Positions 3,737-7,225 of a DNA stretch of 19,945 bases are shown here, in pieces. Source of the DNA: a virus (Duplodnaviria; Heunggongvirae; Uroviricota; Caudoviricetes); IMG/VR virus record IMGVR_UViG_2627853844_000002; one strand, given 5' to 3'. The position numbers and the translations under genes are program-made. The notes under the pieces were generated by a model, which saw nothing but the letters and a program-made list of their open reading frames with translations, made no database searches and was not told the origin of the DNA. Every line of letters begins with the position of its first letter. Positions within the stretch are counted from its first letter, which is position 1.

Positions 3737-3976
3737 ATGGGTAGCATTAACCTGCGTATTGACGATGAACTTAAAGCGCGTTCTTACGCCGCGCTTGAAA
3801 AAATGGGTGTAACTCCTTCTGAAGCGCTTCGTCTCATGCTCGAGTATATCGCTGACAATGAACGCTTGCCGTTCAAACAGACACTCCTGAGTGATGAAGA
3901 TGCTGAACTTGTGGAGATAGTGAAAGAACGGCTTCGTAATCCTAAGCCAGTACGTGTGACGCTGGATGAACTCTGA
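3737..3976 (+). CDS. relB: RelB antitoxin (79 aa)
   Basis: ORF translation MGSINLRIDDELKARSYAALEKMGVTPSEALRLMLEYIADNERLPFKQTLL...; ATGA overlap with relE. Confidence 0.95.
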   Translation: MGSINLRIDDELKARSYAALEKMGVTPSEALRLMLEYIADNERLPFKQTLLSDEDAELVEIVKERLRNPKPVRVTLDEL

Positions 3977-4263
3977 TGGCGTATTTTCTGGATTTTGACG
4001 AGCGGGCACTAAAGGAATGGCGAAAGCTGGGCTCGACGGTACGTGAACAGTTGAAAAAGAAGCTGGTTGAAGTACTTGAGTCACCCCGGATTGAAGCAAA
4101 CAAGCTCCGTGGTATGCCTGATTGTTACAAGATTAAGCTCCGGTCTTCAGGCTATCGCCTTGTATACCAGGTTATAGACGAGAAAGTTGTCGTTTTCGTG
4201 ATTTCTGTTGGGAAAAGAGAACGCTCGGAAGTATATAGCGAGGCGGTCAAACGCATTCTCTGA
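3976..4263 (+). CDS. relE: RelE mRNA-interferase toxin (95 aa)
   Basis: ORF translation MAYFLDFDERALKEWRKLGSTVREQLKKKLVEVLESPRIEANKLRGMPDCYKIKLRSSGYRLVYQV... Confidence 0.95.
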   Translation: MAYFLDFDERALKEWRKLGSTVREQLKKKLVEVLESPRIEANKLRGMPDCYKIKLRSSGYRLVYQVIDEKVVVFVISVGKRERSEVYSEAVKRIL

Positions 4264-4334
4264 ACCAAAGCATGACATCTCTGTTTCGCACCGAAGGTGA
4301 CACTTCTGCTTTGCGTTGACAGGAGAAGCAGGCT

Positions 4335-4490
4335 ATGAAGCAGCAAAAGGCGATGTTAATCGCCCTGATCGTCATCTGTTTAACCGTCATAGTGACGGCA
4401 CTGGTAACGAGGAAAGACCTCTGCGAGGTACGAATCCGAACCGGCCAGACGGAGGTCGCTGTCTTCACAGCTTACGAACCTGAGGAGTAA
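4335..4490 (+). CDS. hokD: HokD (RelF) Hok-family membrane toxin (51 aa)
   Basis: Manual translation MKQQKAMLIALIVICLTVIVTALVTRKDLCEVRIRTGQTEVAVFTAYEPEE; third gene of the relBE-hokD operon; under 60 aa so absent from the ORF track. Confidence 0.9.
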   Translation: MKQQKAMLIALIVICLTVIVTALVTRKDLCEVRIRTGQTEVAVFTAYEPEE

Positions 4491-4558
4491 GAGACCCGGC
4501 GGGGGAGAAATCCCTCGCCACCTCTGATGTGGCAGGCATCCTCAACGCACCCGCACTT

Positions 4559-4590
4559 AACCCGCTTCGGCGGGTTTTTGTTTTTATTTT
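4559..4590 (+). terminator. Rho-independent terminator of the relB-relE-hokD operon
   Basis: CCCGC-TTCG-GCGGG hairpin (4561-4574) followed by TTTTTGTTTTTATTTT. Confidence 0.8.
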
Positions 4591-4598
4591 CAACGCGT

Positions 4599-4628
4599 TT
4601 GAAGTTCTGGACGGTGCCGGAATAGAAT
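4599..4628 (+). promoter_or_regulatory. Candidate sigma-70 promoter upstream of rem (TTGAAG-N18-TAGAAT)
   Basis: Hexamers read directly from the sequence; spacing 18 nt; function inferred only. Confidence 0.3.
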
Positions 4629-4706
4629 CAAAAATACTTAAGTAGCGCGCAGGGATAAGAGGGATGGTCCCTTAAAGGGGAGAGCTAATTATCCGGAAGG
4701 ATTCTG

Positions 4707-4958
4707 ATGATGAACATCGAAGAACTGCGTAAAATTTTTTGTGAAGATGGCCTCTATGCTGTGTGCGTTGAAAATGGAAATCTTGTTAGTCATTACCGCA
4801 TTATGTGTTTGCGAAAGAATGGGGCTGCGTTAATTAATTTTGTGGATGCTCGGGTCACGGACGGATTTATCTTGCGCGAAGGTGAGTTTGTCACTTCATT
4901 ACAGGCATTGAAAGAGATCGGAATAAAAGCTGGCTTTTCTGCTTTTTCAGGAGAATAA
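4707..4958 (+). CDS. rem: Uncharacterised prophage protein (83 aa), probably Rem
   Basis: ORF translation MMNIEELRKIFCEDGLYAVCVENGNLVSHYRIMCLRKNG...; length and position after hokD match my recollection of rem; the sequence itself was not recalled independently. Confidence 0.45.
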   Translation: MMNIEELRKIFCEDGLYAVCVENGNLVSHYRIMCLRKNGAALINFVDARVTDGFILREGEFVTSLQALKEIGIKAGFSAFSGE

Positions 4959-5024
4959 ACTCATCTACAATCTTGCGCGGGGCTGAACTCCCGCTGAGTA
5001 ACACCGTGCCACCGGAGAAAACCG

Positions 5025-5303
5025 ATGGCACGCAACGCAAAATATTACAATTCTGATAATTCGCCCGTTCTTGCCTGCACGCACGGGCGGTATTCTCACG
5101 CATTCAAGTCTGAATGGTTCCAGCACCCTCCATGCACTGCAGAACAGGCCGAATGGCTGATTCATTCTTACCGCAGGCGCGGGTTCGAGGTTAAGAAAGC
5201 TCTCAGTCTCGACTATCGGCACTGGATAATCTCTGTCAGGCTGCCTTATTCCGAACGCCCACCACGTGCGTCCCGCACTTTCCAGCAACGGATCTGGAGG
5301 TAA
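5025..5303 (+). CDS. Hypothetical protein (92 aa); its stop overlaps the ydfU ribosome-binding site
   Basis: Good SD (GGAGA, 6-nt spacer) before ATG 5025; stop TAA at 5301-5303 sits 1 nt before the ydfU GTG start; no recognisable domain. Confidence 0.4.
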   Translation: MARNAKYYNSDNSPVLACTHGRYSHAFKSEWFQHPPCTAEQAEWLIHSYRRRGFEVKKALSLDYRHWIISVRLPYSERPPRASRTFQQRIWR

Positions 5304-5304
5304 C

Positions 5305-6354
5305 GTGCGGGTATTACTTAGACCTGTTCTGGTGCCTGAGCTTGGGCTGGTGGTCCTTAAGCCGGGCCGTGAATCCATACAGATATTTCATAATCCTCGA
5401 GTGCTGGTGGAACCGGAACCAAAAAGCATGCGTAATCTGCCATCCGGAGTCGTTCCTGCCGTTCGCCAGCCGCTGGCGGAAGACAAAACATTGCTGCCGT
5501 TTTTTAGTAACGAACGGGTGATTCGTGCTGCTGGCGGCGTTGGCGCATTGTCCGACTGGCTATTACGTCATGTTACATCCTGCCAGTGGCCTAATGGCGA
5601 TTACCATCACACTGAAACAGTCATTCACCGTTATGGTACCGGCGCAATGGTGTTGTGCTGGCACTGCGACAACCAACTGCGTGACCAGACATCGGAATCA
5701 CTGGAGCTGCTTGCTCAACAAAATCTGACAGCATGGGTGATTGACGTCATCCGTCACGCAATAAGCGGTACGCAGGAGCGGGAATTATCTTTGGCTGAAT
5801 TATCCTGGTGGGCGGTCTGCAATCAGGTGGTGGATGCACTACCTGAGGCTGTATCGCGTCGTTCGCTGGGATTACCAGCGGAAAAAATCTGCTCGGTGTA
5901 CCGCGAAAGCGACATCGTACCGGGAGAGCAGACCGCCACCAGCATATTGAAACAACGCACAAAAAATCTTGCACCGTTGCCTTACGCCCACCAGCAACAA
6001 AAATCACCACAGGAAAAGACGGTGGTAAGCATCACCGTTGATCCAGAGTCTCCGGAATCTTTCATGAAGCTGCCTAAACGTCGCCGCTGGGTTAAGGAGA
6101 AATACACACGTTGGGTTAAGACACAGCCGTGTGCTTGCTGCGGTATGCCAGCCGACGATCCGCATCATCTGATTGGTCACGGGCAGGGCGGAATGGGAAC
6201 AAAAGCACATGATCTCTTTGTGTTGCCTTTGTGCAGAAAGCATCACAACGAGCTGCATACGGATACAGTGGCATTTGAAGATAAGTATGGCTCCCAACTG
6301 GAGCTGATATTTCGTTTTATCGATCGCGCGCTGGCAATTGGCGTACTGGCGTAA
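5305..6354 (+). CDS. ydfU: YdfU, DUF968-family prophage protein with a C-terminal HNH-like zinc-finger nuclease motif (349 aa from GTG)
   Basis: GGAGG SD then GTG at 5305; C-terminus contains CACCGMPADDPHH...GTKAHDLFVLPLCRKHHNELH (CxxC ... HH ... CxxHH). The ORF track's longer 5266 start is less likely. Confidence 0.7.
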   Translation: MRVLLRPVLVPELGLVVLKPGRESIQIFHNPRVLVEPEPKSMRNLPSGVVPAVRQPLAEDKTLLPFFSNERVIRAAGGVGALSDWLLRHVTSCQWPNGDYHHTETVIHRYGTGAMVLCWHCDNQLRDQTSESLELLAQQNLTAWVIDVIRHAISGTQERELSLAELSWWAVCNQVVDALPEAVSRRSLGLPAEKICSVYRESDIVPGEQTATSILKQRTKNLAPLPYAHQQQKSPQEKTVVSITVDPESPESFMKLPKRRRWVKEKYTRWVKTQPCACCGMPADDPHHLIGHGQGGMGTKAHDLFVLPLCRKHHNELHTDTVAFEDKYGSQLELIFRFIDRALAIGVLA

Positions 6355-6367
6355 GTGGAGAACGAGC

Positions 6368-7120
6368 ATGAACCTTGAAGCCTTACCAAAATATTACTCC
6401 CCAAAATCTCCAAAATTGAGCGATGACGCTCCAGCGACAGGCACCGGTTGTTTAACAATTACGGATGTAATGGCAGCGCAGGGGATGGTGCAGTCGAAAG
6501 CACCACTTGGGTTGGCCTTATTTCTGGCAAAAGTTGGTGTTCAGGACCCTCAGTTTGCGATTGAAGGCCTGCTAAATTACGCGATGGCACTGGATAACCC
6601 GACATTGAACAAATTGAGTGAAGAAATCCGGTTACAGATTATTCCTTACCTCGTGAGTTTTGCCTTTGCTGATTACTCCAGGTCTGCGGCAAGTAAGGCT
6701 CGCTGTGAGCATTGTTCAGGTACGGGATTTTATAATGTATTGCGCGAAGTGGTGAAACACTACAGACGCGGGGAATCTGTAATCAAGGAAGAATGGGTGA
6801 AGGAACTATGTCAGCATTGCCATGGTAAGGGCGAAGCCAGCACAGCGTGCAGAGGGTGTAAGGGTAAAGGGATTGTTCTGGATGAAAAAAGAACCCGGTT
6901 TCATGGCGTACCGGTATATAAGATTTGTGGGCGTTGTAATGGAAACCGGTTTAGTCGTTTACCGACCACGCTGGCACGACGTCATGTCCAGAAGCTGGTA
7001 CCAGACCTGACCGATTATCAGTGGTATAAGGGGTATGCGGACGTCATTGGTAAACTGGTAACAAAGTGCTGGCAGGAAGAAGCATACGCGGAAGCGCAAT
7101 TGAGGAAGGTGACGAGATAA
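6368..7120 (+). CDS. quuQ: Q-family late-gene antiterminator (250 aa)
   Basis: ORF translation from the internal Met MNLEALPKYY...; multiple CxxC zinc-finger pairs (CEHCSGTG, CQHCHGKG, CRGCKGKG, CGRCNG); sits immediately upstream of a PR'-like promoter and terminator. Confidence 0.8.
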   Translation: MNLEALPKYYSPKSPKLSDDAPATGTGCLTITDVMAAQGMVQSKAPLGLALFLAKVGVQDPQFAIEGLLNYAMALDNPTLNKLSEEIRLQIIPYLVSFAFADYSRSAASKARCEHCSGTGFYNVLREVVKHYRRGESVIKEEWVKELCQHCHGKGEASTACRGCKGKGIVLDEKRTRFHGVPVYKICGRCNGNRFSRLPTTLARRHVQKLVPDLTDYQWYKGYADVIGKLVTKCWQEEAYAEAQLRKVTR

Positions 7121-7151
7121 ATGATTTTTGCTGAAGATGGCGACATGATGT

Positions 7152-7180
7152 TTGCATTTTTCAAAAAATATGGATAAAAT
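7152..7180 (+). promoter_or_regulatory. PR'-like late promoter (TTGCAT-N17-TAAAAT) downstream of quuQ
   Basis: Hexamers at 7152-7157 and 7175-7180 read from the sequence; position analogous to lambda PR'. Confidence 0.5.
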
Positions 7181-7225
7181 TTTTTCAACGATGGGCTTTG
7201 TATACCCGACGTTAAGAAAAAGTAG

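Follow-up and report, generated by a model that had tools for sequence, protein, structure and literature searches.

Sequence conservation and a predicted structure both support the view that YdfU, the product of a gene of the defective lambdoid prophage Qin, ends in a zinc-stabilised HNH (His-Me finger) nuclease domain. For its role we lean, if only slightly, towards that of a lambdoid delayed-early endonuclease, its HNH domain stabilised by zinc, that would cut or nick phage replication or recombination intermediates. The HNH assignment is itself already known, from literature and annotation resources dating to 2014-2017, and with the idea having been available since 2017 the present analysis adds confirmation and detail to it, not a new concept. 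The additions that may be new are a likely degenerate second module nearer the N-terminus, the separate loss of zinc ligands and catalytic residues among homologues, and the apparently dead active site of the phage P1 relative, PdcB.

The window is the whole stretch of DNA analysed, 19,945 nucleotides from a Caudoviricetes virus. Its DNA from 4600 to 7200 shows 100% identity with C600 and J53, both derived from Escherichia coli K-12, and their annotation gives the gene as ydfU, 'DUF968 domain-containing protein', of Qin. Genes here run in the order relB-relE-hokD, rem, a 92-aa ORF, ydfU and ydfT/quuQ, so that ydfU does lie, as an earlier note on this DNA had it, between a toxin-antitoxin operon and Q. 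The features concerned are:

3737..4490, + strand: relB-relE-hokD toxin-antitoxin genes (from the C600 annotation, coordinate offset 4401; for context only)
5025..5303, + strand: upstream 92-aa ORF (WP_012304870.1; PHROG 1212, E 1.7e-35), ending 1 nt before the ydfU start
5296..5300, + strand: ydfU Shine-Dalgarno sequence GGAGG, 4 nt upstream of the GTG
5305..6354, + strand: ydfU coding sequence, a single 349-codon ORF with GTG start and TAA stop (6352-6354), from the homologue alignment
6368..7120, + strand: ydfT/quuQ, late-gene antiterminator Q, starting 13 nt past the ydfU stop, with GGAG at 6357-6360

The GTG start at 5305 is backed both by the GGAGG and by homologues whose own sequences open with these MR.LL residues, and the homologue starts support a 349-aa YdfU in preference to the older 362-aa form. 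With the stop codon of the 92-aa ORF (5301-5303) falling within the spacer between the ydfU Shine-Dalgarno and the GTG, and the Shine-Dalgarno itself within the last codons of that ORF, translational coupling of the two is suggested. In the phage PhiR42_1 the same DNA is annotated as an opposite-strand ORF of 137 aa (window 4965..5378, - strand), which conflicts with the 92-aa ORF. The short spacings from the 92-aa ORF to Q fit a tightly packed operon. Among the strongest Rho-dependent terminators in vivo of E. coli is one upstream of ydfU in K-12 (PMC9160355), and the gene, intact but resident in a defective prophage, is therefore probably silent there. As to the downstream neighbour, quuQ (6368..7120, + strand) combines an Antiterm domain with a zinc-finger segment of the DnaJ CxxCxGxG type at aa 148-193 (Pfam DnaJ_CXXCXGXG, 35.4 bits). 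Some E. coli genomes encode apparent 607-aa YdfU-Q fusions carrying both DUF968 and Antiterm (proteins P0003, P0004 and P0006), presumably arising from loss of the ydfU stop and the 13-nt spacer.

Along the protein the following regions can be told apart:

5305..5538, + strand: N-terminal subdomain, aa 1-78, a small beta-rich region with short helices in models and no Pfam match
5539..5778, + strand: aa 79-158, with a zinc-type ligand set; predicted helix, beta-hairpin (105-110, 113-118), helix (119-125) and long helix (131-153)
5779..6069, + strand: helical linker, aa 159-255, with conserved LSxxELxWWA...LP, equivalent to DUF968 positions 1-80
6070..6351, + strand: C-terminal HNH/His-Me finger domain, aa 256-349, equivalent to DUF968 positions 82-171, from the structure model
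6130..6258, + strand: motif core, C276 to H318, with zinc ligands C276/C279/C310/H313 and putative active site H288, D303 and H314/N315/H318

The earlier note had read a CxxC, a paired His and a CxxHH-N-x2-H from the C-terminus, and named a profile search, structure prediction and the conservation of the His and Cys residues as ways of checking its HNH proposal. The motif is there: the translation includes QPCACCGMPADDPHHLIGHGQGGMGTKAHDLFVLPLCRKHHNELH, providing C276, C279, H287, H288, D303, C310, H313, H314, N315 and H318, with the spacing C276-x2-C279, H287-H288, D303, C310-x2-H313-H314-N315-x2-H318. Pfam DUF968 (PF06147) matches YdfU with E 1.4e-76 and 256.8 bits (cut-off 27.8), aa 160-346 corresponding to profile positions 1-171, and PHROG 96, 'HNH endonuclease', matches the full length with E 2.8e-171, scores that chance would not give. 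These matches uphold the HNH half of the proposal that a DUF968-like body is joined to a C-terminal HNH motif, while the separate body has to be given up, since profile positions 82-171 are the HNH motif and DUF968 thus contains it. Against Pfam HNHc_6 (PF16784), cut-off 26.6 bits, the last 94 aa alone score 29.6 and full-length YdfU 26.3. No match was found in NCBIfam, and PDB sequence searches with the single protein and with two alignment profiles gave nothing significant, YdfU being linked to Ref and YbcO by fold comparison only.

Structure prediction points the same way, the C-terminal model having the beta-beta-alpha-metal fold of the HNH/His-Me finger superfamily with H288 at the end of the strand 285-288. 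Four zinc ligands flank the hairpin, as in the treble-clef HNH subtype (CxxC...CxxC/H). The arrangement of the domains relative to one another is uncertain, the pTM of the whole protein being only 0.56, and linker aa 228-242 are of low confidence (pLDDT below 50). In the mechanism that we would propose, C276, C279, C310 and H313 would hold a structural zinc in the treble-clef site, H288, with which strand 1 ends, would act as general base, activating the attacking water, and D303 together with the helix residues H314, N315 and H318 would hold the catalytic divalent metal.

Might YdfU instead be a Ref-like RecA-dependent nuclease, one that cuts only in RecA filaments or D-loops and so stimulates recombination as does P1 Ref? 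We consider this unlikely. Against the Ref family profile RecA_dep_nuc (PF16786) YdfU scores 17.8 bits and its C-terminal 94 aa 21.9, both under the cut-off of 26.9. The N-terminal segment on which Ref depends is basic and disordered; YdfU has a structured N-terminal region of 255 aa instead. Further, ref and the YdfU homologue pdcB coexist in P1, and the two are thus not interchangeable.

Conservation of the motif was assessed with a search of 1.84 billion cluster representatives that yielded 2885 YdfU relatives, the motif being covered by 69 representatives. Both kinds of residue are widely kept: H288 in 64 of the 69, D303 in 68, and H314 and H318 in 63 each, with all four present together in 62, and a zinc tetrad of C276/C279/C310/[C or H]313 intact in 53, so the check on His and Cys conservation also favours the HNH proposal. 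Position 313 is C in 20 and H in 33 of the tetrad-bearing representatives, an alternation typical of what a metal ligand would be expected to show. The exceptions are instructive. Fourteen of the 69 lack C279 together with C310 and/or the residue at 313 while retaining every catalytic residue, and four or five jointly lack H287, H288, H314 and H318 while retaining the four cysteines. Zinc ligands and catalytic residues thus appear to be lost as separate sets across homologues, a pattern that may be new, and two residue sets behaving as separate units is what would be expected of a structural zinc site and an active site.

Among the homologues without the histidines is P1 PdcB, which aligns with YdfU over the full length (26% identity, E 1e-40). 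Its gene follows phd-doc and pdcA, and the next gene is lpa, which encodes the late-promoter activator:

3905..4948 of locus L002, strand not given: P1 pdcB, YdfU homologue

In PdcB, PY replaces HH287/288 and both H314 and H318 are lost, while the CxxC...CxxC and the N-terminal CQ..CWHHDN motif are kept. With its catalytic histidines gone PdcB is predicted to be catalytically inactive, a dead YdfU homologue that may not have been recognised before; RefSeq labels it 'HNH endonuclease' despite the missing histidines. From the literature, pdcB is dispensable for P1 lytic growth and its product is highly conserved among P1-like phage-plasmids. A protein that lacks the histidines and is dispensable argues that catalysis is not the sole conserved property of the family. 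A relationship between P1 PdcA and the 92-aa ORF upstream of ydfU was considered and rejected, the two having no similarity.

Those with a taste for regulation could take PdcB as the exemplar and see in YdfU mainly a non-catalytic DNA-binding or regulatory factor tied to the late-transcription switch, its HNH fold serving as a zinc-finger DNA-binding module. PdcB and its relatives keep the fold, a CC..CC zinc site and the N-terminal motif with all catalytic histidines lost, and unrelated systems have the gene immediately ahead of the late regulator (Q of 250, 127, 113 or 192 aa; Lpa in P1). Even so we judge this improbable for YdfU itself, which with the 62 representatives mentioned keeps every catalytic residue, and such retention points to catalysis being under selection. 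The place beside Q may merely mark a module boundary in mosaic lambdoid genomes, and in one distant homologue it is RusA, not Q, that follows the gene.

Homologues of YdfU are widespread and very common. Of 5426 complete E. coli genomes, 4924 contain DNA similar to a 2.6-kb query spanning rem-ydfU-ydfT, and tblastn detected homologues in 186 phage records, among them Escherichia, Stx-converting, Shigella, Salmonella, Klebsiella, Yersinia, Edwardsiella, Vibrio and P1-like phages. Their genes are last or near-last in the early-right (ninR-like) operon, adjoining Q and frequently with RusA as a neighbour. SfV, mEp390 and an Stx2a phage have RusA first, then in some cases a KilA-type gene, and after that the YdfU homologue and Q, with the downstream Q proteins belonging to different size classes; in a Klebsiella phage the homologue is directly before a 192-aa Q; and the relBE-hokD-rem-ydfU-Q block of PhiR42_1 (host ECOR13) is the same as that of Qin. 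More distant homologues (30-35% identity) are encoded at the end of the early operon ahead of Q and lysis genes, or ahead of RusA. A position at the end of the early-right operon, with Q adjoining and RusA often near, makes the cutting of replication or recombination intermediates a likely job, and YdfU would then cut or nick phage DNA intermediates before late gene expression and packaging. A role as a Holliday-junction resolvase standing in for RusA was rejected: YdfU accompanies RusA and does not replace it, so that such a role is not implied. Neither does YdfU resemble in its location the terminase-associated HNH proteins of the HK97 gp74 type, the genes for its homologues being in the early operon; SfV and a second locus (L011) have a separate small HNH gene that adjoins the terminase or stands at the end of the genome, which also indicates that YdfU is not the terminase-associated HNH.

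The earlier note also considered a defence or toxin effector, and one may extend this to superinfection exclusion, YdfU being an effector nuclease that possibly acts with the toxin-antitoxin genes nearby. We think this very improbable, and it has the least support of the rival readings. At E <= 0.01 no model of PADLOC-DB 2.0 matched YdfU, Rem or the 92-aa ORF, so nothing there supports a defence role; YdfU has no sensor or partner domain; and most homologues, those of SfV, mEp390, Stx2 phages and Klebsiella and Vibrio phages, lack a toxin-antitoxin module in their vicinity and are encoded inside the replication/nin operon.

Does the N-terminal half hold a relic of the same module? No Pfam family matches aa 1-159, and comparison of the N-terminal model with BFVD (Foldseek) returned no significant structural match. 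Within this half a Cys/His cluster is strongly conserved, with consensus CQ..Y[C/H]...LCWH[H/C]DN. Every sequence in an alignment of 31 has C93 and C118, conservation reaches at least 90% for Q94, W119 and D122 (D122 in 29 of the 31), and C and H alternate both at position 101 (18 C, 12 H) and at position 121 (23 H, 8 C). An initial hhalign comparison of the N- and C-terminal domains, based on 31 sequences, did not reach significance (E 0.04, probability 1.3%). When 66 N-terminal and 62 C-terminal sequences are aligned profile to profile, aa 77-157 pair with 262-348, in register over 78 columns, with a P-value of 0.002 and a probability of 13.9%, the reversed control having a P of 0.87. Such similarity between the two profiles is suggestive, not proof, of duplication. 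The aa 77-157 module has no conserved histidine ending its strand 1. It is reasonably likely, though not proven, that aa 77-157 are a second, degenerate copy of the His-Me/treble-clef module, one that is probably non-catalytic. The N-terminal 255 residues, this module included, would most likely serve in recognition of DNA or of DNA structure, in dimerisation or in control.

A bolder and rather doubtful extension would have the YdfU/PdcB family consist of tandem His-Me finger proteins derived by an ancient internal duplication, in which the N-terminal zinc module (C93, C/H101, C118, H/C121 and D122) is kept more strictly than catalysis and acts as a DNA-structure sensor or dimerisation unit, and the C-terminal copy does the cutting; in P1-type phage-plasmids the cutting copy would be dead and the protein, encoded next to the late-gene activator, would persist as a DNA-binding factor without catalysis. 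Separately, in several assemblies the N-terminal half (the region of window 5305..5784) continues in frame into fragments of tail-tip, tail-fibre, capsid or portal proteins (proteins P0145, P0189, P0190, P0173 and P0125). That these are real fusion architectures with the N-terminal domain as a mobile module was rejected, as they look like deletion chimeras of decayed prophages or misassemblies; most likely they record large internal deletions in decaying Qin-like prophages.

An intact HNH gene at the early/late boundary is a reasonable target for assays of phage recombination and packaging. The degenerate N-terminal module and the dead PdcB would be small but useful annotation corrections, in view of the label that RefSeq attaches to PdcB.

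The earlier note named no established function, and our literature search likewise found no experimental work on YdfU or any close homologue, with YdfU still among the uncharacterised in a 2024 y-ome survey; the HNH assignment itself was in print by 2017. DUF968 proteins were described as carrying a zinc-finger HNH motif by Curtis et al. in 2014 (PMC4118853), where a Lambda Orf/NinB-like domain was also proposed for Gram-positive DUF968 proteins, and a nuclease function was predicted for YbcO by Kaur and Subramanian in 2016 (PMC4999995). Jablonska et al. in 2017 (PMC5714182) united DUF968 and DUF1364 as His-Me finger group 7, naming Qin YdfU (NP_416078) and YbcO (3g27), noting RusA and Q as neighbours and proposing a role in recombination or repair. 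RefSeq and PHROG 96 term the phage homologues 'HNH endonuclease'.

Comparison with these systems brings out what is shared and what is not. YdfU is a member of group 7, having in common with it the CxxC..HH..D..CxxHH..H motif, prophage origin and RusA/Q neighbours and showing no difference in the C-terminal domain, whereas its N-terminal 159 residues and their zinc motif are covered neither by the Pfam DUF968 model nor in the portions of PMC5714182 considered here. The solved chain of YbcO (prophage DLP12, DUF1364, PDB 3g27) has only 81 residues and is thus essentially the HNH core alone, in contrast to YdfU with its 255 extra N-terminal residues. P1 Ref (PDB 3plw, PF16786), a RecA-dependent HNH nuclease, differs from YdfU in its N-terminal region. 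PdcB, like YdfU, follows a toxin-antitoxin pair and precedes a late-gene regulator.
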